NCBI GenBank assembly: GCA_937862885.1
Contig: CALMEE010000121.1
Location: forward strand, 66,373 to 130,372
Reading direction: 5' to 3'
Origin: an uncultured Planctomycetaceae bacterium
GTDB taxonomy: Bacteria; Planctomycetota; Planctomycetia; Pirellulales; Pirellulaceae
DNA length: 64,000 bases
This document shows positions 7,643-35,004 of the stretch, piece after piece. The translations under genes and the position numbers were made by a program. The stretch's first letter is position 1. The number at the start of each line of letters is the position of its first letter. The notes under the pieces are model-generated. The model saw only the letters and a list, made by a program, of their open reading frames with translations. It was not told where the DNA came from and ran no database searches.

Positions 7643-7938
7643 ACGACTTTTGCGGCATGGTTTGCCAAATCCATTCGCCAGCCTCTCGACCGCTCCGCAT
7701 AGCTTCTTGGATCGTTGCCACGTCATGGGAGTCGCCACAAACGATCAAGCCGTCGGCGCGAACGCGAAACCGTGGTTGATTTGTCGGAAGGCGAAGCGGA
7801 AATCAACTCGCCAAACGCCCATCGAACTTGGCTTGCCTGTGCCCAGGTAACAGCCGCTCCCATTCGTATTCGCTCGCGCCGAAGTCGATCCGCCAGTTGC
7901 TCGGCGATCTTTTGCATTCCTCCAGCCGACAAGGCGAA

Positions 7939-8040
7939 TGGCTTTAAAGTGGCTTTAAAGGACAGGAAAGTGGCTTTAAAGGACAGGCATTTTAAGCGGT
8001 AAAAAGTGGCTTTAAAGGACAGGCATTTTAAGCGGTAAAA
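7939..8040. repeat. Tandem direct repeat: two full 34-bp units (36-bp period) preceded by two truncated copies
   Basis: TGGCTTTAAAGGACAGGCATTTTAAGCGGTAAAA occurs at 7971-8004 and 8007-8040. Truncated copies TGGCTTTAAAG (7939-7949) and TGGCTTTAAAGGACAGG (7950-7966) precede them. The repeat is intergenic, upstream of selD. Confidence 0.85.
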
Positions 8041-8484
8041 TGCGGTTTTTTTCGGGTTTTGAGGAATGTTGGGTGCTCCGAGATGCTTGGGTGGCCGAAG
8101 TTGCCATTGGACCCAGCGCGTCAAAAATTGAATAGTTGTACGTTGATTATCGCTTCAATTGTCCGTTCTTTTTACTGTGGTTCCGATTCCAACTTCATCC
8201 GCAATCATTACGGGTGCATTATTTGGTATCCTTTATGTATCTTTTGTCTTTAATGTTGATTTTGATGGGCAGGCGTTTTAGGACGTTTTGGAACGGGTTG
8301 ATCGGGAAGTCTCGCCAAGCAAATGACATAGCACAATTTGTTGCGGAAACTGATCCGTCAACCAATTGAACGCGACGCATTGCTGTGCTGATCGACGCGA
8401 TATCATGGAACGCACCACGGGCAATAATGCACAATCCCTTTGGAAAACAGACCTTCCATTTACTCAAACCAATCGAGGTAGATC

Positions 8485-9525
8485 ATGACGACCGGACAAC
8501 AAATTCGCTTAACTTCGTACGCCAGCTGCGCTGGCTGTGCCGCTAAGCTTGGGCCAGGAGACTTGGCCCGTGCGATTGGACCGCTTCGCAACCTGTTTCA
8601 ACCCAGTGACTTTCCGCAGCTTTTGGTTGGCCTAGCCAAGGTTGACGATGCAGCCGTGTACCAATTGAACCCAACTCAAGCCATCATCGCTACGACAGAT
8701 TTCTTTCCACCGGTCGTCGACGACCCAGCTGACTTTGGAGCCATTGCTGCCGCGAATGCGATGTCCGATGTTTACGCGATGGGTGGGCAAGTGCTTTTTG
8801 CCATCAATCTCGTGGCTTTTCCAGAAGACCTGGGCATCGATTTGTTAGCCGAGATCCTGCGCGGCGGCGCTGAGAAAGTGGCCGAAGCAGGGGGCGCTAT
8901 TGCGGGTGGCCATAGCGTCAGCGACAAAGAGCCCAAGTACGGCTTGGCAGTTATCGGCATCATTCACCCAGATCAGGTCAAAACGAAAGGAGGAGCCAAG
9001 CCAGGTGATTTGCTCTTCTTAACGAAATCGCTGGGAGTGGGCTTGATCACGACGGCACTTAAACGCGAACAAGCAAGCCCCGAGGACGTGGCGGCCGCAG
9101 TTACAAGCATGAAAACTCTAAATAAAATAGCTGCCGAAGCGGCCTTGTCGGCGCAAGCACACGCCATGTCCGACATAACTGGCTTTGGTTTTTTCGGTCA
9201 TAGTAGCGAGATGGCAACAGCTGGCGAAGTGGATTTTGAAATTCAAGCGGACAAAATCCCGTGGTTGCCGGGCGCTCAGAATTACGCAGCGGCCGGACAC
9301 TTTCCAGGTGGCATGAAGCGCAATCAAAGCCATTTCGAATCCAAAGTCCGTTGTGGCGCTCAAGTAGATTCCCTAATCCATTCCATGTTGATGACACCGG
9401 AAACTTCGGGAGGTCTTTTAGTTGCCGTTGCACCGGAACATGGTGACACATTTCGCTCTCAATGCAAAACTGCAATCGAAATCGGACGCGTCAAGCCCGG
9501 CAATGGTCTTGTGCATGTTCAATAG
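8485..9525 (+). CDS. selD: Selenide, water dikinase (selenophosphate synthetase), Cys-type
   Basis: N-terminal SYASCAGCAAKLGPGDLARA matches the SelD active-site loop with Cys (not Sec). AIR-synthase-related fold motifs DDAAVY, ATTDFFPPVVDDPADFGAIAAANAMSDVYAMGG and GGHS are present. A GAGG ribosome-binding site lies upstream. Confidence 0.9.
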   Translation: MTTGQQIRLTSYASCAGCAAKLGPGDLARAIGPLRNLFQPSDFPQLLVGLAKVDDAAVYQLNPTQAIIATTDFFPPVVDDPADFGAIAAANAMSDVYAMGGQVLFAINLVAFPEDLGIDLLAEILRGGAEKVAEAGGAIAGGHSVSDKEPKYGLAVIGIIHPDQVKTKGGAKPGDLLFLTKSLGVGLITTALKREQASPEDVAAAVTSMKTLNKIAAEAALSAQAHAMSDITGFGFFGHSSEMATAGEVDFEIQADKIPWLPGAQNYAAAGHFPGGMKRNQSHFESKVRCGAQVDSLIHSMLMTPETSGGLLVAVAPEHGDTFRSQCKTAIEIGRVKPGNGLVHVQ

Positions 9526-9995
9526 CCATTAGACGCCTTCCGCGCAACATCGAGTTCGTCGCTTTGCATTCTCCCAGACTCCCCTTCCCTCATGAGAGCA
9601 AGAATCGTTGGTTGGTTAAGCAAACGCCCACGTTTAGTATGTCTTAACGACGCTGTTCATATTTCATATTCAGAGGTAATTCGGGGCCTTGTCGCCGACC
9701 GCCACTACCAAGTGTGGCCCAATGCCAAAAACCAACTTGATTCTTGCACCCGTTCTCAGCTGTTCGGTACTCGTACTCTTACTCGAATCCCCATGGGACG
9801 GCGCATACGAGTACAATTTCTTTGAGTTCGCGTAAGATGTTGTGGTTAGCCTCGGTGGCATTAGTGAAAACAGGTTAGTTTCGTCGACTTTTCTGATACC
9901 TTGCGACTTACAACAAGCCATTGGATAATTGATGTTGATTTGGACCAGCGCGAGCGACCATCGCTCGCAAGAAAACATTTTTGAAAGGCACTTCA

Positions 9996-20586: not shown

Positions 20587-21132
20587 ATGACCCCTAACCA
20601 GTCGCGACGACGCCTTGATGAATTGTTGCCTTTGGTATACGACCAAATGCGAGCATACGCTTCTCGCGCGTTGGAAACGGAAAGAGCCAATCTCTCGGTC
20701 CAAACTACGGATTTAGTGCATGAAGTCTATCTGCGACTGAGCCAGTTACGGGAAATCGATTGGGAAAACGAACAAGAGATTTTGCGCACGGCGGTAGCCG
20801 TGATGCGGCGTGTGTTGGTGGATCGTGGACGTCATCGACGCCGGCAAAAACGTCAGCCGACGGGAGTTCGCGTACAACTCGACGGTTTGGGTGATGGTAA
20901 ATCTGACAGCGACTCAGGCGTCGATGTGCTGGATTTGCACGAAGCCTTGGAGCGACTGGCCGCGTTTGACGAACGGAAAGCGGAAATTGTCTCGCTGCGG
21001 TGTTTTGGAGGACTGACGGTCGAGCAAGTCTCCGAGGCACTCTGCGTGTCGACCACGACAGTCAAACGAGAGTGGGCCGTGGCCCGGGCTTGGTTATTTC
21101 GCGAACTAAAACATGAGCCAACCGTCGAGTGA
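20587..21132 (+). CDS. ECF-type RNA polymerase sigma factor
   Basis: Region 2 LVHEVYLRL...DWENEQEILRTAVAVMRRVLVDRGR and region 4 HTH LTVEQVSEALCVSTTTVKREWAVARAWL. Its 3' end overlaps the kinase gene by 20 nt. Confidence 0.8.
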   Translation: MTPNQSRRRLDELLPLVYDQMRAYASRALETERANLSVQTTDLVHEVYLRLSQLREIDWENEQEILRTAVAVMRRVLVDRGRHRRRQKRQPTGVRVQLDGLGDGKSDSDSGVDVLDLHEALERLAAFDERKAEIVSLRCFGGLTVEQVSEALCVSTTTVKREWAVARAWLFRELKHEPTVE

Positions 21133-24100
21133 ACATTCTAATTGGCAGCGAGTCGAAGAGACGTTTTTGAGGCTCCTTGACTTCCCTCCAGAATCGCGTC
21201 GCGAGAAGCTGAACGAACTATGTGGCGACGACTCTCTCTTGGCGCACGAAATCTCTTCGCTGCTCGATGCCTACGATGCCTCCGATGGATTTCTCGAACA
21301 GAGTTCGTTGGGAATCGAATCACTCGTCGACGAATTACTGACCGAATGGCAAATTCCGGCTCAAGGTTTGGAAACCAAGCGTGGACAATCAACTTCCGAC
21401 CTTCAGATCGAAACGGACGTCAAGGCGTCGAACCTTGACATCAATCTGCGACTTGGAGACCACACCCGACAACTGCCTGATTTGGCCGATTTGCAACGGC
21501 TCATCAGTTTGGTGCGCGCTGATTATCGGTTGGACCAACTAATCGGACGCGGGGGCAGCGGGCTTGTCGTGCGGGGCTACGACCAGCGATTGCAACGCAC
21601 GGTGGCGATCAAGTTCCTCAACCCAGACCTAACCAAAGGCAAATTTGCGAACTGGCTCGAAAGCGAGGGACGAGCCGCCGCCGGATTGACGCACGATCAT
21701 ATAGTGCCGATCTACGAAGTGTCGCCGCCCGAATCACCGCTGTCGTTTCTGGTGATGAAGTGGATCGATGGCCCGACGCTCCGCGATTGGGTCAACGAGC
21801 ACGGCCCTCTCGAACACCGCCAAGCCGCAGAATTAACTCGCCAATTGGCCGAAGCGGTGGAACACGCTCACCGTTGTCAAACGGTGCATGGCGATATCAA
21901 ACCGATCAACGTATTGTTGCAAGTTCGAGAAGACTCAAGCACAAAACCACTTTGGCGGTCGATGCTAACCGATTTCGGTTTGGCCAGGAGGATCGACAGA
22001 CAATCCACCCCAATGGCCGGATTTGTCGGCACACCGGCTTATGCCAGTCCTGAACAACTCTTGAATATGGAACCTCCATCGGTCGCCAGCGACGTGTACA
22101 GTTTGGGAGCCACGCTGTACGAGCTTCTGTGCGGCGCACCGCCCTATCGCGGATCCCCCCAAGCGGTCATTCAACAGATGATCGACCACGACCCGGTTTT
22201 GCTTCGTTCGCTCGAGCGGACAATTCCCGCCGATCTGGAGAGTATTTGCTTCAAGGCCCTGTCGCGATCCCCCAGTCAACGTTATCGAACAGCGGGAGAT
22301 TTTGCCGCTGATTTGCAGCGGTTCCTCGACGGGCATCCGGTGGAGGCTCGGACGGTGGGCCCAATCCGCCGGTTTTGGATGGCCGTGCGCCGCCGCCCGT
22401 TGGTCAGCGGATTAATGGCCACCATTGCGGTTGTCATGCTCGTGGGCATCATCGCAAATTCGATCCAAGCCCGCATTGCACGCCATCAGCGGGACATCGC
22501 TGTGGAAGCTCGCCAAGCGGAATCCGAGCAGCGGCAAAAGGCCGAGCAGAACGAACAAGAAGCGATTCGAATGGCTGAGTTGGAAACCGAGGCCCGCCAG
22601 ATCGCCGAGCAAAGAACTGAGGAAACTCGCACGGTCCTCGAATTCGTCGAACAACATATCATCGCCGCTGCCCGTCCCACCAATCAAGAAGGTGGCTTGG
22701 GAAACCAAGTAACTTTGCGAGAGGCTATCGAATCGGCGGAGCATTTTTTTGAAACGGGTTTCTCCGATCTGCCGATCGTGGAGGCCCGTTTACGCATGAC
22801 GTTGGGCACCTCGTTTTTGTATTTGGGGCAGTTAGAAAAAGCGAAAAAGCACCACGAACTGGCGCACCAGATTTTTACCGATCAACTCGGAGCGGAGCAT
22901 GCAACGACGTTATTGGCAGAAAACTATTTGACCAACTGTTATTTTGCTCTGGGAGAATATGGCCGAGCCCGAGAGATGTACGCCGCCACGCTCGCAAAAC
23001 GTGAGCGAGTACTTGGTGCAACCCACAAACAGACGCTCGAAAGTCGCAACAACTTGGCCAACTGCTATTTTCATTTGGGACAAATTGAACAGGCTGTCGC
23101 CCTGAACGAGAAGACGCTGCAATTGCGGCGCGAGAGTTTAGGCCCCGACCATCCGGATACGCTCGAATCGGAAGGCAACTTGGCACTTGATTATGTCGAA
23201 TTGGGGCGTGCCGACGAAGCGTTTGAATTGATGTCGCGAGTCAGCGAGACGCTGCGCGAGCAACTGGGTCCAGAACACCCGAAAGTGTTGATGTCCCAAA
23301 GAAATGTGGCGTTTATCAACATCAGGCGAGGACAATTGGAGGAAGCACTCAAGCAGTATTTGGAACTTCACGAACTCGAAAAGCAGCACCTGGATGCCGA
23401 TCATCCAGACGCGTTGCAAACGATCGATCACATCGGAGTGATTTATGGCTTCTTGCGACGATTCGATGAAGCACTACCGTGGGCTGATCTGGCATTTCAG
23501 AAAAAACGATCCAAGCTCGGCGCACAACATGCCGAAACTCTTCGCGCGATGATGAACTTGGCGGGAACCTATTTACAATCCGAAAAATTTGAAGAGGCGT
23601 TTTCGATCTATCAGGAACTACGAACGCTGTACGCCGATCACCCGGATCTCGGACCGGATCCGCCGACCGGGGTGTTGTACGGAGCGGCAACGGCTGGCTT
23701 GCGCGTGGGAAACGGCTCAGAAGCCATCAAGTTGATTGATGAGTGTTTAGACCGGGCTAAAAGCGACCCCGAATATTTGCGAGTTGCCCCTGATTTTATC
23801 AATCTGCGGGTGCAACATTTCAGTGGTCAAGGCGATCTGGACGAATGCAAAAACTCGGCCGAAATTTTCGAGTCCCTGGGGCTCTCGTCGATTGAACATC
23901 TGTTGATCGCGGCGCGGTTAAGGGTCGTAGTAGCTGGATTGTCGCAGTTTGACGATCTATCGGCAGAACCCCCACCGGATTTAGACTCGCGGATACTCAC
24001 CGACACCAACGCCGATCTAGCCATTACCCACATACGCGCCGCCATCGAACGAGGACTTTCCAATCCGCAACAACTACTTCAAGACCCGATCCTCAAAGCG

Positions 24101-24148
24101 ATCGCACAGCATCCTGACCTCATCGCGCTCATTGGCAACGATGACTAA
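21113..24148 (+). CDS. Ser/Thr protein kinase with an N-terminal sigma-associated region, one TM helix, a coiled coil and C-terminal TPR repeats
   Basis: Kinase subdomains LIGRGGSGLVVRGYD...VAIKFL (Lys), HRCQTVHGDIKPINVLL, DFGLAR and GTPAYASPEQ. TM helix LVSGLMATIAVVMLVGIIANSI. Multiple TPR-like units (NLANCYFHLGQ, LALDYVELGR and others). Confidence 0.85.
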   Translation: MSQPSSEHSNWQRVEETFLRLLDFPPESRREKLNELCGDDSLLAHEISSLLDAYDASDGFLEQSSLGIESLVDELLTEWQIPAQGLETKRGQSTSDLQIETDVKASNLDINLRLGDHTRQLPDLADLQRLISLVRADYRLDQLIGRGGSGLVVRGYDQRLQRTVAIKFLNPDLTKGKFANWLESEGRAAAGLTHDHIVPIYEVSPPESPLSFLVMKWIDGPTLRDWVNEHGPLEHRQAAELTRQLAEAVEHAHRCQTVHGDIKPINVLLQVREDSSTKPLWRSMLTDFGLARRIDRQSTPMAGFVGTPAYASPEQLLNMEPPSVASDVYSLGATLYELLCGAPPYRGSPQAVIQQMIDHDPVLLRSLERTIPADLESICFKALSRSPSQRYRTAGDFAADLQRFLDGHPVEARTVGPIRRFWMAVRRRPLVSGLMATIAVVMLVGIIANSIQARIARHQRDIAVEARQAESEQRQKAEQNEQEAIRMAELETEARQIAEQRTEETRTVLEFVEQHIIAAARPTNQEGGLGNQVTLREAIESAEHFFETGFSDLPIVEARLRMTLGTSFLYLGQLEKAKKHHELAHQIFTDQLGAEHATTLLAENYLTNCYFALGEYGRAREMYAATLAKRERVLGATHKQTLESRNNLANCYFHLGQIEQAVALNEKTLQLRRESLGPDHPDTLESEGNLALDYVELGRADEAFELMSRVSETLREQLGPEHPKVLMSQRNVAFINIRRGQLEEALKQYLELHELEKQHLDADHPDALQTIDHIGVIYGFLRRFDEALPWADLAFQKKRSKLGAQHAETLRAMMNLAGTYLQSEKFEEAFSIYQELRTLYADHPDLGPDPPTGVLYGAATAGLRVGNGSEAIKLIDECLDRAKSDPEYLRVAPDFINLRVQHFSGQGDLDECKNSAEIFESLGLSSIEHLLIAARLRVVVAGLSQFDDLSAEPPPDLDSRILTDTNADLAITHIRAAIERGLSNPQQLLQDPILKAIAQHPDLIALIGNDD

Positions 24149-24702: not shown

Positions 24703-25515
24703 ATGCTTCTCTCCCATCCCTACGAAGATTCAGTGCTCTTGTTGATCACGGGACAAGGCCGTTCTGGTACGACCGTGATGACCAAAGCAATTGCTGAGCA
24801 CCCGCAAGTTGCAAGCAACCGAGTTGAAAGCAACGTAATTCACGATTTGATCTCAGTTGCAATGCAGCAATTGACGAATCCCAGTCGAACCAAGCAAATG
24901 CTCGTCCAGCCAAATGAGTTTCGTCGAATCTTTCGGCAGATGATCCTGCATCTGCAGTTTCCCATTGGCCACTCCGTACTTCCCCACACCCCTCGGCCAG
25001 CGTTTTTCTCAACGTTTTCCGCGATGACGCCAAGTATTGCCGAACTCGCCACAGAGATTTTTCCCGGCATACGGTTTGTCAATATTGTCCGTAATGGGAT
25101 CGAGGTCGTTTCCTCCCGGATGAGGCATCGAGTCATGCAGGCTTATTCGTTTGAAGAGCAATGCTATGCTTGGGAGGCTGCCCGACAGATGATTGACTGG
25201 GGCGCCAACAGAGCGGATTTCGTTTTGGTTCGCCATGAATGGTTATTGGATGATGCCGAGTGTCGCAGGGCTTTCGAAACCATTTGTCGAGTCTGCGGTT
25301 TGGAGCCTTCACCCGTTTGCGCCGACTATGTTCACCATACACACCGCAACCAGACCAGCTTTGACGAAGAACCTGATAGCCACAAAAAATGTCTGAACCA
25401 GCGATCGGCACGCTGGCGTTACTGGACCGATGCACAACGCCAAACCTTCATCGATATCTGTGGTCCGAATATGCAGTATTTGGGTTATGAGATCCCGTGG
25501 GCATCATCCACCTAA
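24703..25515 (+). CDS. Sulfotransferase-family protein (putative)
   Basis: An AAAGGAG ribosome-binding site lies directly upstream of the ATG. TGQGRSGTTVMTK resembles the PAPS 5'-phosphosulfate-binding loop (PKSGTTW-like). RFVNIVRNGIEVVSSRM resembles the 3'-phosphate-binding motif. The call rests on motifs only. Confidence 0.5.
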   Translation: MLLSHPYEDSVLLLITGQGRSGTTVMTKAIAEHPQVASNRVESNVIHDLISVAMQQLTNPSRTKQMLVQPNEFRRIFRQMILHLQFPIGHSVLPHTPRPAFFSTFSAMTPSIAELATEIFPGIRFVNIVRNGIEVVSSRMRHRVMQAYSFEEQCYAWEAARQMIDWGANRADFVLVRHEWLLDDAECRRAFETICRVCGLEPSPVCADYVHHTHRNQTSFDEEPDSHKKCLNQRSARWRYWTDAQRQTFIDICGPNMQYLGYEIPWASST

Positions 25516-28500
25516 GATTCTGGCGGATCGTCATTTTCCAAGCGGTTGATCAGACGGTCGTAGTTCTTTTGCGTGAGTTTTGCGGCCTCGGCGAGCCCTT
25601 GGGCATCGGATGTCTTTTCAGCCAATGACAAAATGGGTTCCATCCAGGTTTGTAATACGCGAAATTGATTCCGCAACACGTTCAGGATCGAGTTAGGAAT
25701 TTTGTTTGTGATTTCAATCTTCTGTTGAGCAACCTGTTGCGGCAGCGCTGCGATTGCCTGCGCTTGATGTTCGTAAAGGTCACGCAATGCCTGGAGTCCT
25801 TGATTGAACTTTGCCAGCTCCGCCACACCTCGCGATAGCTCTCCCAACATGGCGGTATCGATGGTGCTTGGCACTTCTTCGGTCGGCTGGCTGAGCATTT
25901 TCGTACCGCGTTGTACCGTACGACTGATCTCATGCAGCCCTTCCGACACCAGATTAATTTGGGAAATGATCTGGCTTACTCGATCATCACCAGACGAAGT
26001 TCCTAATACAAGATTTCTTTGAAAACGACGGCGAATCTCGGCAAGTCGTTCACGTTGTTCATCACTCAGCTGTTCCGTCATTTCGCGGAATTTGAGCAAA
26101 TTCGACTCGGCATCGGTGGTCAACGTTTGCGCCTGATTTTCGTAATGCGAAGTGATTAGCGTCATCAACTCTGCATCGTTCATCATCGGTACCACGCGCT
26201 CCGCAATTTTGTTCATATCTCGATAGGAACCCTGCATACGAAAAGGTGGCTCGGTGCGATAGGCGTCAGCTTGAGCGGCCGAGTCGATGTACTCTCGGTT
26301 CACACGCAATATCACCTCGCGCACCCGCAACAGCTTTTGCAACACGTTAACAATTTCATTGATCTGTTCGAGAGAGTATTCTCCTTCCAGCGAGCCCTGC
26401 GCGGCCGAGCGATTCGTGGCCATCTCAATTAAGGCATAGGTATCTCGGCTGCTGCGCGCCTGCAGGGTACTTAGCGCGGGGTTGCTGGTCAAACTATTCT
26501 CAAGATAGCTCAGTTCAAACCAACGCAGGTTGTTGCCAATCACATCGCCGAGGTTATACGTGTCCGCACGATTGGCCAACATGTCCGGGATCTGGAATTT
26601 TTCTCCGCGCTCGGTGTACGGATTGCCGGCCATCACCACACACACTTTTCGGCCGCGCAAGTCATACGTCTTGGGACGACCCTGAAACACCCCTTCAATC
26701 CGACGCGTGGCATCGCATAAAGAAATAAACTTCTGTAACAACTCTGGATGACAGTGTTGAATGTCGTCCAGATAGATCATCACATTGTCTCCCATTTCCA
26801 ATGCCAGGTTTAGCTTCTCGATTTCCTGTCGAGCACTGGCGTGAGGTGCTTCAGCTGGATCAAGGGACGTAACATGGTGCCCAACCGACGGCCCGTTGAT
26901 CTTGACAAAAGTGATGCCCAAGCGATTCGCAACGTATTCCATCAATGTGGTCTTGCCATATCCGGGTGGAGACACGAGAAGCAACAGCCCCATCAAATCC
27001 GTTCGCTTTTCCTCACCGGCCACACCAAGCTGCTTGGCCAAATTCGCGCCAATTAGCGGTAAATAGACCTGATTGATCAGTTGGTTTCTCACAAACGAAG
27101 TCAATACCTTGGGTTTGAAATCGTCCAGCTTCAACTCCTCGCGGCGGTGCTCGACCAGTTGCTGTTTCAGTTCCATGTAACGCACAAAATCCGGCACGGT
27201 TACCGTTTCGAACTTATGCAGCCGCTGCATCACCTGGTGACAATTCAGTTCATAACCGGTCGATGTGAGTCTCGGGTGTTCGCCGAGGAGTCCATGTAAG
27301 GTCATCTGCTCCTGCGCGTCGAACACTTGTGGATCGCTTGCAGTTTGGTCGATGATCAGGGCAGCAACCTCGTCGACACAATGCGACTCATCGGCAGCGG
27401 AGTCGTCTCGTGCTTGTGCTGAAAATCCTTGCAACCAGCTAATCGCTAAATCAAATCGATCCAAGGCATTTAACGCCGACGATTTCATGTCGGAAGCAAA
27501 TGCCGCTTTGGTCTCATGTTGTCGTAGATAATTCGTGAAAGCTTGTTTGAGATCTTGGGCACGACGACTGATGACGAATCGCTGGAGCAGAGATAGTTGC
27601 TCGACCAGCGCGCTGGCTGCTTCAGCACAGAGCCCGCGAGCAAAGCGGGAGGCTTGGTCGCAAAATAGCTTTAGCTGCTCCTCAAGCTCGCGGCAGATCT
27701 GCCGTTGATCAACCTGATCACCAAAAATACCGCGCGCCCGGCCGAGGCTTTGCAGTTTAATCTCCAGAGACTTTTTCGCGGACTTCTCGAGTTGATTCCA
27801 AAACAAAATTCCCAGAACGCGTGCTTGCGGCGAGAAGCGTAATAATCCAAGCTCCCGCTCCAATTCCAGCATCGTATTGAGGATCAAGCGCGCATCCGAG
27901 TCATGAACGCCTTTAACGTACCCTTCCGTGTACCGAGGGGCCATGAACTGTTGCACTTCCAGGATTTGCTCTTGCGGCGTGAGGGCCAACCATTGTTGAG
28001 CGTCCAAATGAAACTGGGCAGCCCGCATCGCTTGCAACATCTTGTAAGCCAGATACTCGCCTCGGTAGACTTCTCGATTTTCCGATACGATCACTTGATC
28101 CCACACCGCCGAAGTTCGCAAAAATTCTTCGTCACGGATGGGTTCAAGAAAATTTGTGCCGCTCAGGTGGAAGAAGGGCGCGCGATCCCGCATGACAATC
28201 GTCAAGTCGAGCGGCTGCGTATTGACGGTAAAGCGATGGTCACCAAACTGGATAATGTTCTGGCCGTCAACATAAAGTTCCTGGCGATCTTTGAGTTGCC
28301 GGATGGCTTCTTCGCGAATGGTCTTTTGGCGACTTTGTAACTCATCGGCTTTGACGGTCTCTTCAAGTTCGAGCAGTTGCTCGACAATGTCGCGAACCTT
28401 TTCGACCATTAAATCCGAGGCAAAATAGCCATGAATCTCATCGATCGACTTAAGTGCGTTGACCCGTGAGGCGACACCTTTTAGTATCCGGTCAGCCGAT

Positions 28501-30869
28501 TCTGTTAAGGCCGTGGCGCGGCGATTGCGGGCTTCAATCAATTGCAGCTTCCGCGTGTCGAATGCCGAATAGACCTCTTCACGTTTCTCGGCCAACTGAA
28601 CCAAGAACTCATCAAACTCGACAAAGCGGCCTTCAAGCTCTTCGATCTCGACCAAAATGCGGGTCAGATACTCGTCGCAGCGTTGTGGTGAATCGCAATG
28701 ATCGAGGTAATTGACCACAGCTTGTGCGAGCAACTTGAGTTGTGAGTTGAACTCGGCCGCACCTTCGACCGATAGCAGGCTCTGCGAACGATTACGCAGA
28801 GTGGCACGGGTGCGATTGACGTTGGCAAAGAGGCTGGAAATATTGTCGATAATTTCCGTGCGCTGCGTAGCGTCATCGATGTGCAAGTTGTTAACAACAT
28901 CAATCAACATTTCCAAGTCGCTGGCCACTTCACGGATCTGCTCATCCAAATTTCGGCACTCAGCAACCGTCTTCATCTGTTCGATGGATGCGTATTGATG
29001 ATCGACGCGGTCAATAAACCGTTGCAGCGAATCTTCGCGTAGTAGGAATTTCAAACAATCGTGCGAGAGATCTGCTGTTCGATCGGCAATCGCAGTTTCC
29101 AGCTCTTCCACAGCCACCAAATCAACGAACCTCAATTCCTTTAAAGAAATGGCTCGTCCACGGAGGGCTCTTAATGCGGCCAGATGTTCTACAAAATGGT
29201 CAATATCGCTGAGCAATTCTCGCCGACTGGCGTCGATCGCTGCCTGTGCCGCTTCAGCGACGGCCTGCAATTGTTGTTTGGTGTTTGCGCGGATGCGCAC
29301 CACTTTGTCGAATTCGTTGATTGCCGCTGTCGCAGATTGCCGGATAGCTTCTACCGCGCTTTTTAAATCGAAAGCCTGCGGCTCAGCCAACCAAAAGTAT
29401 CCATCAGCAATGTCACTAGCCAATTTGGCGATGTCGACATAGAGATTGGCATAACTGTCGTCACGAGTCGTCAATTGAATAAGTTCAGTACACTCCGCCA
29501 GTGCACGCACGACTTCTCGATTGCCGATTTTGTAAATGTAGGCATCGGTTTTTTGCGTCTGGGGAACGTTGGATCCAACGAATGGCGTTTGCCAAATCTG
29601 CAGAGCGTGGTGTTTCTGCGGTGACGGGTCCGAGCGAAATAAGATTCTGCGACCATCTTCAAACATCGAAAAGCCATCGCACACTAAAGGCGTCAAGACG
29701 GACTGCTCAATCATGTTGTAGGACAGCAGGACGTAATGGCAGGTTTCGGGGTGAAAAAAAACATACAAGAAGTCTTCGGCATTGTGAGCGGCGACTCGCT
29801 TTTCGAATACCAGGTTCGAAAGATTGTTGTCAAAACGTTTTAGCTCGCCTGATTGCAAGATATAGCCGCTGGAGAAAATCAGACCGTGATCTTCCGGCAA
29901 AGATACACAGGCCTCTGCAATATCATCCAGCCTCGATACGGTGCGGGTCTTCTCGGCATACACCAGATACCGATACTCCTGTTCCCGATAAGGGCGGATT
30001 TTTAGCAGGATCAAGTTTCCAAAAACAGCATAAAACGTTTCGGCATCATCTAACGTTTGGTCTGGATCATCCACCGGCTCGCGATAGATTCCTTGACCAT
30101 CTTCAGTATTGTCTTCCACCTTGATCGTTAGATCGCCACCAATTGTTTCGACAAACACGCGATCTTCAATCGAAATGTGAGGGAAGCGACCGGATCGGTG
30201 CTGATCACGATGCGCGCGGATCCAAACGAAATCGTGTTGCGGAGGAAACTTGACTTCGTGATCACTGCGGTTATCAATGTAGGTTAACTTATCGGCGTCA
30301 ATCTGAAACTTGAACGCCTTTAAATCCCGAAATGCTCCGCCAACTTGGAAGACCAGATACAAGAACGGTGGAGCAAGTTGGAACTTAGAGAACCGCGTGT
30401 TACGGTAGTATTTGTACAGCTGTTGAAAATCGTGATTGAATCTGGCATCCCCGAGCAAGTCCAAACCAAGTTCGGAAAAGTGGCCAGCGCGTTCCTCGTA
30501 AGCTGCAAACACATCGGCCAGCCGAACTTCCGCACGCAGACCCATGAAAACGTTATAGCCGAAAAGAAACTGTTTACCGATGGCGACAATATCTTGCGCG
30601 ACGCAATTGTGTTCAGTAGTGATTCTTTCGGTCGACAAAAGTCTTGTCGGGATCGAACCGAATACTTCTCTTCTGAGTTGGTTTAACTGGTCCATCCGCT
30701 GCTGCAACTCTGCAGCTTGGTTAGCCAGGCGATCACGCAGCAACTGGTACGTGCTGCGGTCGAGTTGGGAGCGATCCACGTCGGAAGTCAAATCTGTTTC
30801 CGCTCGGTCGCGTGACGATTTGTCAAGCGATGACCGTTGCGAATCGTCGTGGGATTTGACGTCGGACAT
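25512..30869 (-). CDS. Giant (1785 aa) uncharacterised protein with a single classical-AAA-type ATPase module near its C-terminus; flotillin-associated
   Basis: Continuous 5.36-kb ORF. Walker A VSPPGYGKTTLMEYVANRLGITFVKINGP (about 26950-26990), Walker B NVMIYLDDIQH about 55 aa later, a sensor-1-like VCVVMAGNPYTE and an Arg-containing SRH-like IPDMLANRADTYNL. The N-terminal ~1250 aa mix beta-rich and long helical segments, and there is no TM helix. It is co-directional and 111 bp downstream of the flotillin gene. Confidence 0.8.
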   Translation of the reverse strand: MSDVKSHDDSQRSSLDKSSRDRAETDLTSDVDRSQLDRSTYQLLRDRLANQAAELQQRMDQLNQLRREVFGSIPTRLLSTERITTEHNCVAQDIVAIGKQFLFGYNVFMGLRAEVRLADVFAAYEERAGHFSELGLDLLGDARFNHDFQQLYKYYRNTRFSKFQLAPPFLYLVFQVGGAFRDLKAFKFQIDADKLTYIDNRSDHEVKFPPQHDFVWIRAHRDQHRSGRFPHISIEDRVFVETIGGDLTIKVEDNTEDGQGIYREPVDDPDQTLDDAETFYAVFGNLILLKIRPYREQEYRYLVYAEKTRTVSRLDDIAEACVSLPEDHGLIFSSGYILQSGELKRFDNNLSNLVFEKRVAAHNAEDFLYVFFHPETCHYVLLSYNMIEQSVLTPLVCDGFSMFEDGRRILFRSDPSPQKHHALQIWQTPFVGSNVPQTQKTDAYIYKIGNREVVRALAECTELIQLTTRDDSYANLYVDIAKLASDIADGYFWLAEPQAFDLKSAVEAIRQSATAAINEFDKVVRIRANTKQQLQAVAEAAQAAIDASRRELLSDIDHFVEHLAALRALRGRAISLKELRFVDLVAVEELETAIADRTADLSHDCLKFLLREDSLQRFIDRVDHQYASIEQMKTVAECRNLDEQIREVASDLEMLIDVVNNLHIDDATQRTEIIDNISSLFANVNRTRATLRNRSQSLLSVEGAAEFNSQLKLLAQAVVNYLDHCDSPQRCDEYLTRILVEIEELEGRFVEFDEFLVQLAEKREEVYSAFDTRKLQLIEARNRRATALTESADRILKGVASRVNALKSIDEIHGYFASDLMVEKVRDIVEQLLELEETVKADELQSRQKTIREEAIRQLKDRQELYVDGQNIIQFGDHRFTVNTQPLDLTIVMRDRAPFFHLSGTNFLEPIRDEEFLRTSAVWDQVIVSENREVYRGEYLAYKMLQAMRAAQFHLDAQQWLALTPQEQILEVQQFMAPRYTEGYVKGVHDSDARLILNTMLELERELGLLRFSPQARVLGILFWNQLEKSAKKSLEIKLQSLGRARGIFGDQVDQRQICRELEEQLKLFCDQASRFARGLCAEAASALVEQLSLLQRFVISRRAQDLKQAFTNYLRQHETKAAFASDMKSSALNALDRFDLAISWLQGFSAQARDDSAADESHCVDEVAALIIDQTASDPQVFDAQEQMTLHGLLGEHPRLTSTGYELNCHQVMQRLHKFETVTVPDFVRYMELKQQLVEHRREELKLDDFKPKVLTSFVRNQLINQVYLPLIGANLAKQLGVAGEEKRTDLMGLLLLVSPPGYGKTTLMEYVANRLGITFVKINGPSVGHHVTSLDPAEAPHASARQEIEKLNLALEMGDNVMIYLDDIQHCHPELLQKFISLCDATRRIEGVFQGRPKTYDLRGRKVCVVMAGNPYTERGEKFQIPDMLANRADTYNLGDVIGNNLRWFELSYLENSLTSNPALSTLQARSSRDTYALIEMATNRSAAQGSLEGEYSLEQINEIVNVLQKLLRVREVILRVNREYIDSAAQADAYRTEPPFRMQGSYRDMNKIAERVVPMMNDAELMTLITSHYENQAQTLTTDAESNLLKFREMTEQLSDEQRERLAEIRRRFQRNLVLGTSSGDDRVSQIISQINLVSEGLHEISRTVQRGTKMLSQPTEEVPSTIDTAMLGELSRGVAELAKFNQGLQALRDLYEHQAQAIAALPQQVAQQKIEITNKIPNSILNVLRNQFRVLQTWMEPILSLAEKTSDAQGLAEAAKLTQKNYDRLINRLENDDPPES

Positions 30870-30980
30870 GTTGATACAAAAATGGAATTGAGAAGGTTAT
30901 TCGAACGATCGCATGGTTTGGCGATCCATGCAAAACGCATTCGGGCAAATCGAAACCATATCACCCACACGTTTCGGGTG

Positions 30981-33020
30981 TTACGTAGACGAGTTTTTCC
31001 CTGACAGGTCGAGAGCACTTACCTTGGCCTTGTACATACCACTTCGTGTTGCGGCGCGAATCAGATTTTCCAATTGGCCGATCATCGATTGGTCTTCGGT
31101 AAGACCCATCATCTGGCCAATCAAGGCCGCAACTGACAAATTCTTAACGTCATTGGAAGTAATGCCGAACATGTCAATATAGCGGGCTAGTTCTGACTTG
31201 AAGTGCTCGGAATCCCCACTGAAAAAAGTTTCCTTGATATCAGACAAGACGCTGCTTCCCTCGACCAACCGATCGACTTGTTTCCCGGCGGTTACGCTGC
31301 CGACGATGCTTTCGAAGAACTTGGTGTCACCGCCGACAATATCGATTTTGGCGGCCTTCAATGCATCACCCACCATCGACGCTTGTGCCTTGGCAATTTG
31401 CTCTTGGGTGGCGATCGCTTGCAGTTCGATTTCTTTATCTTTGTTCAAACGGAGCTTGAATTCTTCGTGTTCGCGTCCAACGCCGTCGAACAACTTCATG
31501 GCCTCCGCTTTTTGTGTAATTCCCTTAGCGTCAGCGGAGAACTTCAGTTCCAGGACTTCGGCTTCGGCCTTGCCTTCTTTACGCAGAGCGTCAGCCTTGG
31601 CAAGCGTAATATCGGCTTCCGCCAGACCTGGTGCGGCTTGTTCGGCGCGGACGGCCTCGGCCAACATTTTCTTGGCTTCAGTCTCTTTTTCAGCAGCCGT
31701 TTTTTCTGCATCCGCTTTGATGACGATCGTCTTCGCTTGCAACTCGGCGGATTCTTTTTCCGCCTCCGCTGCTTTGACGGCAGTGACAAACTCTTGTTGA
31801 GCAATTTCTTCGGCGGCTGTAATCGCTACCTTCTTTTTTCGTTCTGCAGCAGCGAATTGTTCCGTATCCTTAATCCGCTCTTTCTCTTGCACGACTTCGC
31901 GTTCCACCATCACGCGTTGGCGAATCACCTCTTGAATATTCTTGTTCTCAACTTCGACGGCTTTCTCTTTGTCGATTTGAGCCAATGTAACTACTCGCTC
32001 GCGTTCAGTCATTTCCAAACCGCGATCGCGTTCGACTCGTTCCGTCTCGACTGCATCCGTGCGTTGTTTATTCTTTTCGGCGACGATGATGGCGCGCAAT
32101 CGGTTTTCGTCCGCAATCGCAATCTCTTCATCGGCCGTGATCCGCGCCAGTTCCTGCCTTCGCCGTTCCTCTTGTGCTACGATTTCCGCTTCCGCCCGTT
32201 GGCGAGACGTGATCTCAGATATTTCACGAGCTTGTTTTTCTTCGGCCTCGGCTTGTTGTCGCTCCAAAACCAAAATCGCTTCGCGGGCTTCAACATCTTG
32301 TTTTTTAATCGTCTTATCTTTTTCGTTGCGAATCAAATTAGCTTGAACTTGCTCACGGGCGGTCAAGTCGGTGATCTTTTTGATGCCTTCTGCGTCGAGC
32401 ACGTTATTCACATTCAGGCTCTCGATTGGCGTCTGCTCCAAGAAATCAATCGCCGCATCGTCCAACAAGTAGCCATTCAAGTCCGTGCCGATCACCTTCT
32501 TGATCTCTTCGCGGAACTTTTCGCGCGAACTGTATAACTCGATAAAATCGAACTGCTTGCCAACCGACTTGAGCGCCTCAGAAAACTTGGGCTCGAAGAG
32601 CGCGACCAGCGCGGATTGGTCCGATGCACGCTTGCAGCCGAGGAATTGCGCGACCTGTTTCACGTCGTCGGCTGTCTTGTTCACGCGCACGAAGAAAGCA
32701 ACTTTGATGTCGGCGCGAATGTTGTCCTTACAGATCAAACCGTCGGAACCATGCCGGTCAATTTCGATGCGCTTGACCGAAATATCCATCCATTCTGCTT
32801 TGTGCAGTATCGGAATTACAAACATGCCAGAAAAACTGACTGCGGTGCCTCCCATGCCGTTACGCACGATCGCCGTGCCTTGGCTGACCTTCTGCCAACA
32901 GCGGATCAACAGCGCGATCAATCCGATAATCACGATCAAGCTGGCGGTTCCCACAAACGCCGGCATCAAGAATTCGAATTGCGCCAGAACAAGGCTACTG
33001 ATCAGATTAACTTCGAGCAT
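30981..33020 (-). CDS. Flotillin-like SPFH/band-7 protein (YqiK/FloT family) with a long coiled-coil region
   Basis: N-terminal TM LVLAQFEFLMPAFVGTASLIVIIGLIALLI. The SPFH core QKVSQGTAIVRNGMGGTAVSFSGMFVIPILHKAEWMDISVKRIEIDRHG...IRADIKVAFFVRV. A very long E/A/K/R-rich coiled coil follows. The start overlaps the upstream NfeD stop by 1 nt (TAATG). Confidence 0.85.
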   Translation of the reverse strand: MLEVNLISSLVLAQFEFLMPAFVGTASLIVIIGLIALLIRCWQKVSQGTAIVRNGMGGTAVSFSGMFVIPILHKAEWMDISVKRIEIDRHGSDGLICKDNIRADIKVAFFVRVNKTADDVKQVAQFLGCKRASDQSALVALFEPKFSEALKSVGKQFDFIELYSSREKFREEIKKVIGTDLNGYLLDDAAIDFLEQTPIESLNVNNVLDAEGIKKITDLTAREQVQANLIRNEKDKTIKKQDVEAREAILVLERQQAEAEEKQAREISEITSRQRAEAEIVAQEERRRQELARITADEEIAIADENRLRAIIVAEKNKQRTDAVETERVERDRGLEMTERERVVTLAQIDKEKAVEVENKNIQEVIRQRVMVEREVVQEKERIKDTEQFAAAERKKKVAITAAEEIAQQEFVTAVKAAEAEKESAELQAKTIVIKADAEKTAAEKETEAKKMLAEAVRAEQAAPGLAEADITLAKADALRKEGKAEAEVLELKFSADAKGITQKAEAMKLFDGVGREHEEFKLRLNKDKEIELQAIATQEQIAKAQASMVGDALKAAKIDIVGGDTKFFESIVGSVTAGKQVDRLVEGSSVLSDIKETFFSGDSEHFKSELARYIDMFGITSNDVKNLSVAALIGQMMGLTEDQSMIGQLENLIRAATRSGMYKAKVSALDLSGKNSST

Positions 33021-33649
33021 TAATTCTTCTCCGGTTTTCTTAACTCAACGAGATAATAATCTCCAACTTTGTCGTAGCCGACGATGGCAACAACTTCTCC
33101 CTGCTTCAACCGCTGGCCAGTAGCACTGCGCGCGTTGAGGATCAGCGGAGGTCCATCATTTTCAATTCTGATTTCTCCGAATTGATCGTTCAACTCAAGG
33201 GTGTTCACCGAGGCTTGCCGACCAATCAAGGTCCACCGCGTTTCCAGGCTCGCTTCGTCTTTACGAAAAAGCGGACGCAAGGGCATCAACAGCAAACGCG
33301 TCAGGAGCAAGCTCCCCACAATAGCTGGTACCGTGATCAACATCATCACCCACCAGGCATACTCTGGATTCAAATAGTGATTCGCACAAACGGTCGTGAA
33401 CCAGAACAATAGTGCGAACAACGACACCATGAGTGCGATCGGAATTTCCCCAACTTGCAGAAACGCCTTGAACGCCCCAAGCAATGCTGTCTTGGATTCG
33501 GCCACCCCATCGATGCCCGAATCAAAGTCCAACACGTCGACTCCAAGCACACCCAAAATCACCAGCAGCCAGTACATCAGTACCGCACCCAATAGGAATG
33601 TGGCGGGCAAATTGACAGGCATGAAGATTTCATTCAAAAACTCGATCAC
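33020..33649 (-). CDS. NfeD-like membrane protein (YqiJ-like), the partner of flotillin
   Basis: Three or four TM helices followed by a short C-terminal OB-fold-like soluble domain (GQVVAIVGYDKVGDYYLVEL). This is the typical NfeD plus SPFH gene pairing. Confidence 0.75.
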   Translation of the reverse strand: MIEFLNEIFMPVNLPATFLLGAVLMYWLLVILGVLGVDVLDFDSGIDGVAESKTALLGAFKAFLQVGEIPIALMVSLFALLFWFTTVCANHYLNPEYAWWVMMLITVPAIVGSLLLTRLLLMPLRPLFRKDEASLETRWTLIGRQASVNTLELNDQFGEIRIENDGPPLILNARSATGQRLKQGEVVAIVGYDKVGDYYLVELRKPEKN

Positions 33650-35004
33650 GGCCTGGCCCTACCTTTGCTCCAAACGTTTCGTGTTGACCTTTGCCCCCAT
33701 CCAAAATTGTTCTGCATCGTCTTTAGAGATCCCAAGCTTCATTATAATTACCATCCCAATAACCTGGTGTTACGAAAGCAAATTTGATGGAGATACCTCG
33801 GTTTCATTACAATTAAACGGAGTCTGCTCAATTCATATTCCGCTGACTACCCCCGCCCTGATTCAATTGTAGGGTTTGACCGAAATAGGACCTGTCAAAC
33901 AGCACCTAGCCACCAACCCCAACTGTTTACATTCCTTGCTCAAAATTGATTTAAGTGAATTCAGTACAACCAACAGAAAAATCTTTTGAATTTGGGTGCA
34001 TTAGATTCGCCGACAGTCACCCTTTCTTGGAACGATTTTGAAAAAATGAACCGCACAATTTCGGGAAATGGCCAGAACTGGCTCAAACCACTTGCGGTTG
34101 GGCGAAAAGCAAGAGTCATTCGTCTCTCACAACTTCCCGGCACCGCAACTCCTCAATTGAGTTAGCCACGGACTAAAGAAATTGGCAGCGGTGAATGTGG
34201 ATTCGTCGATGCGATTCTAACGAACGAGTTCCATGTTCAACGAAACCAAAGCTCGCTCCGATCGTCCACTAATTAAACATGGATTAGCACGGTCAATCGA
34301 CTGATACGTGGGCGATATAACGACGCGATGGTATTTCCAGCGAAGGTCTGATCACTCATTCACCAACGTGATCATACTCGTGCTAATGTTCCGTCTCGTA
34401 CACTTACGCCTGATGAACAAACGGATTTGCCGCAGACGATTTCACCTGAGTCTAATCGGGCGTTTTACTTCCGTAACCGAAGGCTCGATCCAGAAAGCGA
34501 TCAAAGACCCAAAACTGAAACATGGTCAGGATGACCGGCAGAACAAACTGGAATGCTTGGAAAAATCGGAATTGTACTTGTATGTCAGGAATCCGACCGA
34601 AAATCCAGTTGCGATTGACATGCAAAAAAATGCCGACCAAATAAAAATTCACGATCAACAGCAGGCACGTCATGCAGCATACGAGCATGATATAGGTCAG
34701 CCCCGCGCTTTTGGATTCATGCTTTATTTTTCGTAATCTGACCATGCAATTAAACAATATACTGCAACAACTGGCGAACGTACATCCTTGGCATTAGACT
34801 GTCGGAACAATTGGTAGAGAATACGATTCGCAAAGTCGCATTGCCAACAGCGCAAGACCGAACAAGACGAGGTATCCGTCTATTGTGCAATGTGCTCGCA
34901 AAGTTTGCAATCGGCAGGCAGCGGTGGAAGTTACAAAGGGACACTTTTGATTCATCAAGTCTGATTCGGGGCTGGACACGAATTGATTTGGCAAGGAACA
35001 AACA

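Follow-up and report, generated by a model that had tools for sequence, protein, structure and literature searches.

In the present work, we examine a module of three genes on the minus strand of a 64,000-nucleotide stretch of DNA from an uncultured Planctomycetaceae bacterium (assembly GCA_937862885.1, contig CALMEE010000121.1). The whole stretch is called the window below, and its positions are counted from its first letter. In their order of reading, the genes encode a YqiJ-like membrane protein of 209 amino acids (aa), a flotillin of the YqiK type with 679 aa, and a giant soluble AAA+ ATPase with 1785 aa. The association of the three is near-obligate when followed from either end, and the module is kept across at least ten bacterial phyla. 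Taken together with the gene identities, the domain architecture and the invariant catalytic motifs, this synteny leads us to propose that the giant protein uses ATP to remodel a membrane assembly of flotillin and NfeD and would act in envelope stress, a mechanism that we infer and hold to be somewhat on the probable side.

The module was singled out by an initial annotation, made from the sequence letters alone, as a candidate undescribed one. This designation has to be withdrawn, as the operon had already been reported by Ravi et al. in 2024 (mSystems 9:e00847-23, PMC11237479). These authors describe operons of four elements, in which a CesT/Tir-PspA pair is joined with a flotillin, an AAA+ ATPase and a YqiJ/YuaF protein of three transmembrane (TM) segments, and also abbreviated operons, with flotillin, YqiJ and sometimes an ATPase and without PspA, that are spread more widely. 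Their supplementary table gives for Dokdonia donghaensis (ANH61663.1) a YqiJ-YuaF protein, a Band-7 + coiled-coil + flotillin protein and a beta-propeller + coiled-coil + AAA-ATPase protein. The three gene families, their order and their orientation are identical to those of the window trio, which is a further, abbreviated member of this operon type already reported by comparative genomics; in contrast to the full operon, the CesT/Tir-PspA dyad is not found within the 64 kb of the window.

It should be pointed out that the published study contains no census, structure or experiment on the ATPase, and makes no link to DUF3686/DUF7902 or to the name 'DNA repair ATPase'. The value of the present analysis lies in the reciprocal census, in the connection of the published 'novel AAA+ ATPase' to these Pfam families and in a structural outline; the system as such is not of a new kind. 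No papers were obtained when the literature was searched for DUF3686, PF12458 or 'DNA repair ATPase' together with flotillin, and no experimental work on the giant ATPase was found in the literature searched.

Conservation of the gene order

For the census outward from the giant gene, one genome per GTDB species was scanned with the family alignment and the best 80 loci were kept. The six-frame open reading frames (ORFs) of these loci were then searched with hidden Markov models (HMMs) of the three families, and the counts are restricted to loci with at least 3 kb upstream. A flotillin gene lies upstream of the giant gene on the same strand in 62 of 66 genome loci, representing seven phyla, and a YqiJ gene is present too in 59/66. 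By group, the association is present at 12/13 loci of Planctomycetota, 25/27 of Bacteroidota, 15/15 of Verrucomicrobiota, 5/5 of Clostridia and 2/3 of Desulfobacterota, and it is seen also in Kiritimatiellota and Omnitrophota. The gap between the flotillin and giant genes has a median of 128 bp over 69 related loci; in the window it is 111 bp, and with the 1-nt overlap of the first two genes the trio is tightly spaced.

The reverse census, starting from the flotillin subfamily and using metagenome contigs, finds the giant gene downstream at 64 of 66 loci and YqiJ upstream at 71 of 74. The adjacency of the trio is thus far beyond chance. The initial annotation had itself proposed a count of co-occurrence with SPFH and NfeD genes, and had raised the concern that orthologues of the giant protein might reside mostly elsewhere; with 62/66 and 64/66, chance adjacency is refuted.

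The flotillins that adjoin the giant ATPase (that of the window and those of loci L004-L169) form a distinct, highly conserved and slowly evolving subfamily, in which proteins of Planctomycetota are 52-57% identical to those of Clostridia or Bacteroidota. For the same comparison the giant proteins are 44-50% identical over ca 1650 aa. Across loci, the identities of the giant protein and of the flotillin to their window counterparts show no significant rank correlation (Spearman 0.18, p=0.18), and co-evolution is not claimed. The same gene order is annotated on plasmids, namely pQBR103 of Pseudomonas fluorescens (L085), a Streptomyces plasmid (L086) and a Deinococcus plasmid (L087), and copies of the trio on large plasmids occur in Hymenobacter as well. 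On pQBR103 (85413-104335), the trio is preceded by genes for PspA, a rhomboid protein, DUF2491, DUF350, DUF1190 and a glutathionylspermidine synthase, a string that resembles the polyamine-linked PSP operon type of Ravi et al. The high identity across phyla, together with the plasmid copies, suggests horizontal spread.

In 17-19 Bacteroidota loci, a divergent helix-turn-helix (HTH) gene is followed by CesT_Tir_1 (E=3e-58) and PspA (E=6e-41) genes directly upstream of YqiJ. These loci reproduce the full operon form of Ravi et al. and agree with that study, and it is because of them that a link of the trio to membrane remodelling can be drawn. When the flanking ORFs were clustered, this HTH/CesT_Tir_1/PspA set was the sole further conserved one, and outside Bacteroidota nothing else was conserved around the trio.

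In several Bacteroidota and Desulfobacterota loci, further genes are inserted in a variable slot that separates the flotillin gene from the giant gene, while the core trio is left intact. The slot genes are mutually unrelated (DMP19-like, DUF3997, AbiEii toxin, lipoprotein, DUF3592 and esterase). A conserved fourth gene was looked for at this place and was not found.

These distribution data also bear on another scenario, in which the trio would be a mobile module of conflict or anti-phage defence, its membrane scaffold and ATPase serving to sense or abort infection. It would account for a patchy occurrence combined with high identity of both proteins, for the presence on large plasmids in the four genera mentioned, and for the AbiEii or DMP19-like gene found in the slot of some loci. 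However, no PADLOC-DB 2.0 model matched the giant protein significantly, the sole hit being mad8 on the P-loop at E=0.058, and for the two smaller proteins there was no hit. The trio lacks an effector domain of the nuclease, protease, pore or NADase kind in the domain searches, and a scan of viral contigs returned no relatives. The neighbouring genes in the window are housekeeping or regulatory ones (ilvC, sigma factors, a kinase) and do not make up a defence island, and the recurrent partner of the trio, PspA, is an envelope-stress protein. A role in defence is accordingly judged to be quite improbable.

Identity and architecture of the proteins

The giant protein is no orphan. DUF3686 matches at aa 54-492 with E=2e-179, covering profile positions 1-448 of 448, DUF7902 matches at aa 613-696 (E=2e-26), and AAA (E=4e-8) and AAA_5 (E=4e-7) both exceed their cutoffs at ca aa 1296-1420. 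Judged by these matches, the protein is a member of the catalogued DUF3686/DUF7902 family of unknown function, so that the well-characterised family which the initial annotation had allowed for is not what was found. The family is large: a word-indexed search with the giant protein gives more than 5000 proteins at E<=1e-10, and a library clustered at 50% identity holds 1367 representatives at E<=1e-3. Full-length relatives have ca 1600-1900 aa and reach down to ca 26% identity. The absence of a TM helix, as initially annotated, is borne out by a hydropathy scan, in which no TM-like segment appears (maximum KD19 1.06).

The database names of the family point in a different direction. NCBI calls the giant protein 'DNA repair ATPase', and Pfam describes DUF3686 as 'ATPase involved in DNA repair'. 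Were these inherited names correct, the position of the gene beside the flotillin gene would be functionally meaningless. One could add that there are weak RuvB_N/RuvB matches, which fall below the Pfam cutoff (E=1.7e-4) and cover 50 residues at the P-loop, and that the long coiled coils have a superficial likeness to SMC or Rad50. The ATPase is, however, of the AAA+ type and not an SMC/ABC-type head, no DNA-binding or nuclease domain was detected, no conserved DNA-repair gene lies nearby, and the literature searches found no paper that supports the name. It is the near-obligate reciprocal synteny with membrane-protein genes, flotillin and YqiJ, that brings the DNA-repair reading close to refuted. 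The name is very probably wrong, and looks like a misannotation that has been propagated.

We now consider the architecture of the giant protein on the basis of AlphaFold2 (AF2) models. For aa 1-1200 the mean predicted local distance difference test score (pLDDT) is 78, and the model consists of a helix (aa 35-71), an all-beta region (aa 76-427), long helices (aa 444-863, where 502-550, 667-724 and 751-805 each form a helix 50-58 residues long), a small beta domain (aa 872-910) and a helical domain that extends to ca aa 1173 in this model and is placed at aa 936-1240 overall. In Foldseek, the beta region matches propellers of the WD40 and other types (DCAF1, CyRPA, Elp1, TLE and prolyl-oligopeptidase propellers). 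For aa 1201-1785 the model quality is moderate (pLDDT 69), with values of 75-89 in the AAA core and 50-73 in the long helices of aa 1561-1785. The predicted order is thus a helix, a beta-propeller, long helices, the AAA+ domain and a helical tail. In the models, the propeller and coiled coil combined with the AAA+ domain have the layout of a motor to which a targeting module is attached. A 'membrane-coat-like' N-terminus was also considered and was rejected, since the TM-scores of its Foldseek matches (IFT-A, nucleoporins and clathrin) are no higher than ca 0.1.

The ATPase cassette is a single P-loop AAA+ one. Walker A is GYGKT at 1303-1307, within SPPGYGKTT, sensor 1 is N1416 (GNPYTE), R1434 lies in PDMLxNRAD, and QGSYR carries a sensor-2-like arginine. 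The single module, the sensor-1 Asn and the arginine of the initial annotation are thereby found in place, and its label of a classical AAA ATPase finds no clear support. Two further details need correction: Walker B is DD at 1368-1369 (DDIQH), not DE, and the spacing from the Walker A Lys to the Walker B Asp is 62 aa rather than ca 55. SPPGYGKTT, DDIQH, GNPYTE, PDMLxNRAD and QGSYR are invariant in 149 of 150 diverse members, down to ca 26% identity, and the ATPase is therefore under selection to function.

For the 209-aa protein, a hydropathy scan gives three hydrophobic segments (aa 12-43, 62-90 and 97-124). Its family profile aligns with E. coli YqiJ at 97% probability in hhalign (E=1.2e-10, 147 columns), and in the PDB it finds the soluble C-terminal domain of B. 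subtilis YuaF (2k14, E=5e-4). The Pfam model YqiJ_N gives an insignificant match to the protein (E=0.31), and the NCBI name is 'DUF1449 family protein'. By this profile homology, the protein is best described as a YqiJ/YuaF-type NfeD partner with a multi-TM N-terminus and a soluble OB-like C-terminal domain. Since the homologues start with MIEFL.E, the GTG start is favoured over the shorter NCBI call.

The profile of the 679-aa family matches E. coli YqiK at 99.9% probability (E=3.4e-37, 35% identity over 416 columns), and the alignment spans aa 15-480, with the anchor and SPFH region included. The reference YqiJ and YqiK proteins were those of E. coli K-12 (NC_000913). The protein has a single N-terminal hydrophobic stretch (aa 14-46, hydropathy scan), and its layout is an N-terminal membrane anchor, an SPFH domain, a Glu/Ala-rich coiled coil, and the flotillin C-terminal region with a tail. 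The source databases label it SPFH/flotillin/YqiK. Sequence searches of Pfam, NCBIfam and the PDB give essentially no matches for the flotillin or the YqiJ-like protein. For the window flotillin there is no Pfam match even at E<=10, its family profile finds no PDB chain at E<=0.01, and among 31 members of the subfamily Band_7 (PF01145) matches only three, two of them from the 21 close and one from the 10 distant relatives. Because the Band_7 model finds no match, flotillin membership rests on the profile-profile homology to YqiK, on which basis we assign the protein as a YqiK-type flotillin. The YqiJ-like NfeD and YqiK-like labels of the initial annotation are thereby confirmed.

The E. coli YqiJ-YqiK and B. 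subtilis YuaF-FloT pairs have the same beginning as the window trio, namely a gene for a multi-TM OB-domain protein followed by a flotillin gene. In E. coli there is no third gene, sibD/ibsD coming after yqiK, whereas the flotillin subfamily of the window nearly always precedes the giant ATPase. The window flotillin is moreover ca 125 aa longer than E. coli YqiK, 35% identical to it, and mostly unseen by Pfam Band_7. These NfeD-flotillin pairs belong to the SPFH2 group of Hinderhofer et al. from 2009 (PMC2636767), whose study has two-gene NfeD-SPFH operons only.

Layout of the locus

The positions of the features are collected in Table 1. Those of the three genes, and their strand, coincide exactly with the initial annotation, and the overlap of 1 nt and the 111-bp gap it described are likewise seen in the sequence. 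The overlap is the single base shared by the yqiJ-like stop and the flotillin start (AAT TAA TG, where TAA and ATG have the A in common). At the other end, the giant-gene stop overlaps the end of the convergent sulfotransferase gene, and the three-gene unit therefore ends there.

Table 1. Features of the three-gene module and adjoining gene in the window, and slot positions in other loci.
Feature	Position	Strand	Basis and remarks
yqiJ-like gene, NfeD-type partner	33020..33649	-	ORF, 209 aa, GTG start
yqiK-type flotillin gene	30981..33020	-	ORF, 679 aa
Intergenic spacer, flotillin/giant gene	30870..30980	-	111 bp
Giant soluble ATPase gene	25512..30869	-	ORF, 1785 aa; DUF3686 + DUF7902 + AAA/AAA_5
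Predicted N-terminal helix (aa 35-71) and beta-propeller (DUF3686, aa 54-492)	29394..30767	-	AF2, Foldseek
Predicted long helical/coiled-coil region including DUF7902, small beta domain and helical domain	27150..29540	-	AF2
AAA+ ATPase module (aa ca 1290-1560)	26190..27002	-	motifs
Predicted C-terminal helical region of giant protein (aa 1561-1785)	25515..26189	-	AF2
Convergent sulfotransferase gene, Sulfotransfer_3	24703..25515	+	ORF, Pfam
Slot between flotillin and giant genes, L015	8612-9698		
Slot, L022	8715-9383		
Slot, L036	6992-8158		
Slot, L054	7874-9774		
Slot, L065	2478-3347		

A promoter and terminator scan of 25000-35000 found no minus-strand promoter-like site in the 111-bp gap. 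There is one weak hairpin at 30980-30962, immediately 3' of the flotillin stop, with a 6-bp stem and a poor T tail. Terminator-like sites number 13 in the scanned region, compared to 12.5 expected from shuffled sequence. A strong terminator and promoter in the gap, which the initial annotation had considered as a sign of an independent giant gene, were thus not found; with site counts at chance level, the scan is uninformative on co-transcription. The three genes form one conserved and probably co-transcribed unit. The promoter of the module should lie in the stretch of ca 660-740 bp upstream of the yqiJ-like gene, in which no convincing sigma-70-like site was found. Beyond this stretch lies a divergent ORF of 142 aa (34308-34736, plus strand) with no Pfam match, which in public assemblies is a gene of 107-116 aa.

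The window is 100% identical to a contig of a Pirellulaceae metagenome-assembled genome (MAG; GCA_035324835.1, DAOLAY010000004.1), and the giant protein is 100% identical to a Pirellulaceae MAG protein. On the opposite strand, with ca 1.4 kb between it and the giant-gene end, there is a gene (21113-24148, plus strand) for a Ser/Thr protein kinase of 1011 aa that carries a long TPR array. It adjoins a sigma-factor gene of the extracytoplasmic function (ECF) type just upstream (L001 19738-20283), and a conserved link of the kinase gene to the trio was not seen at other loci.

Possible function of the ATPase

In the mechanism that we favour, the flotillin would be anchored by its N-terminal hydrophobic segment. 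Jointly with its 3-TM OB-domain YqiJ partner, it would oligomerise at the inner membrane, where it would form an SPFH cup or cage facing the cytoplasm. The soluble giant protein would dock on this flotillin/YqiJ assembly by means of its beta-propeller and long coiled coils, and would oligomerise through its single AAA+ domain. ATP hydrolysis could then drive the assembly, disassembly or other remodelling of the flotillin scaffold, of its clients or, where present, of PspA polymers, and the setting would be membrane or envelope stress. The physical contact, the substrate of the motor and its physiological role are all parts of what we infer here; that a motor is recruited to flotillin scaffolds, as the initial annotation suggested, is a reasonable hypothesis.

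The class of the AAA+ module bears on what it could act on. Its nearest structural neighbours are the MoxR chaperone-like ATPases NorQ and CbbQ, and tentatively it looks MoxR/dynein-like rather than classical. The module departs from the MoxR family (NorQ, CbbQ, RavA) and the dynein-midasin AAA_5 group in that no VWA/MIDAS partner was found and in that Walker B is DD. The hhalign comparison with E. coli RavA is insignificant (7.5% probability), and the N-terminal propeller/coiled-coil region of 1250 aa is not a known MoxR feature.

An SPFH cage that is paired with an AAA+ enzyme is known from the inner membrane, where HflK/C associates with the AAA+ protease FtsH. The likeness lies in the combination of an SPFH scaffold with an AAA+ machine. 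FtsH is a membrane-embedded protease of the classical AAA clade, whereas the giant protein is soluble, has no protease domain in the Pfam search, leans toward the MoxR/dynein-like type, and has a flotillin and not HflK/C as gene partner.

This precedent, and the relation to MoxR ATPases, would fit with a client-processing or quality-control machine. In that case, membrane proteins that are damaged or not assembled would be corralled by the flotillin cage. The AAA+ protein would act on these clients and not on the scaffold, as a chaperone-like maturation or extraction factor in the manner of MoxR ATPases or of FtsH inside HflK/C. Unfolded proteins are reported to be stabilised by flotillin microdomains (PMC11222466), which is in line with such a function, and the synteny evidence is the same as for scaffold remodelling. 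Against it, a domain for the handling of clients, such as a protease or VWA/MIDAS domain, is absent from the giant protein and is not conserved in adjacent genes. The inserts between the flotillin and giant genes are heterogeneous, and no conserved candidate client lies nearby. Overall, we consider client processing to be unlikely.

Returning to the remodelling of the flotillin/NfeD assembly, there are four observations that weigh against it. First, the position of pore loop 1 (aa 1322-1334, window 26868-26906) is occupied by a nearly invariant G-H-x-V-T-S-L-D-P with no aromatic residue, which argues against a classical threading unfoldase; this loop and the invariant DD Walker B are both unusual for a substrate-threading AAA+ motor. 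Second, at 4 of the 66 loci (L023, L033, L049 and L083) the giant gene is solo. It starts there at ca 7660-9995, with no flotillin or YqiJ within 7-10 kb upstream, and the upstream genes are unrelated ones (PSCyt2/PSD1/DUF1501/YdjC, TPR, DUF2147 and TonB_C/Uma2). Third, HMMs made from 19 PspA and 17 CesT_Tir_1 neighbours find neither a PspA nor a CesT gene in the 64 kb of the window. The fourth is the weak hairpin after the flotillin stop codon.

A more specific version is that the giant protein would be a motor dedicated to the ATP-driven assembly and disassembly of the flotillin cage, and also of PspA polymers at loci that encode PspA; this we put forward as a tentative possibility only. Vps4 acting on ESCRT-III and katanin p60/p80 provide an analogy in function only, being cases where an AAA+ motor with a targeting module remodels a membrane-associated or cytoskeletal polymer, and the parallel is extended by PspA, an ESCRT-III relative, being a recurrent operon partner. 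Unlike Vps4 and katanin, the giant protein has no MIT domain, no meiotic-clade AAA signature and no aromatic pore-loop residue, and no homology to them beyond the AAA+ fold was detected. According to a 2025 review (PMC7619361), the Band-7 partners of PspA have 'undetermined roles' and a Vps4-like ATPase is apparently absent from bacteria. If the dedicated-motor proposal were true, the giant protein would be the bacterial functional counterpart of Vps4 on ESCRT-III, would supply the 'missing' ATPase for bacterial ESCRT-III-like systems, and would be the first enzyme mechanistically tied to a bacterial flotillin.

The role of bacterial flotillins is disputed, and no enzyme is known to be mechanistically tied to them. 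The present results establish that the genes of one flotillin subfamily are nearly always accompanied by that of a large AAA+ protein with intact catalytic motifs (64/66 loci, at least ten phyla, and plasmids). The trio thus offers a concrete handle on whether an ATPase remodels the flotillin/NfeD assembly or PspA, and constitutes a well-defined and experimentally open lead on the function of bacterial flotillins.

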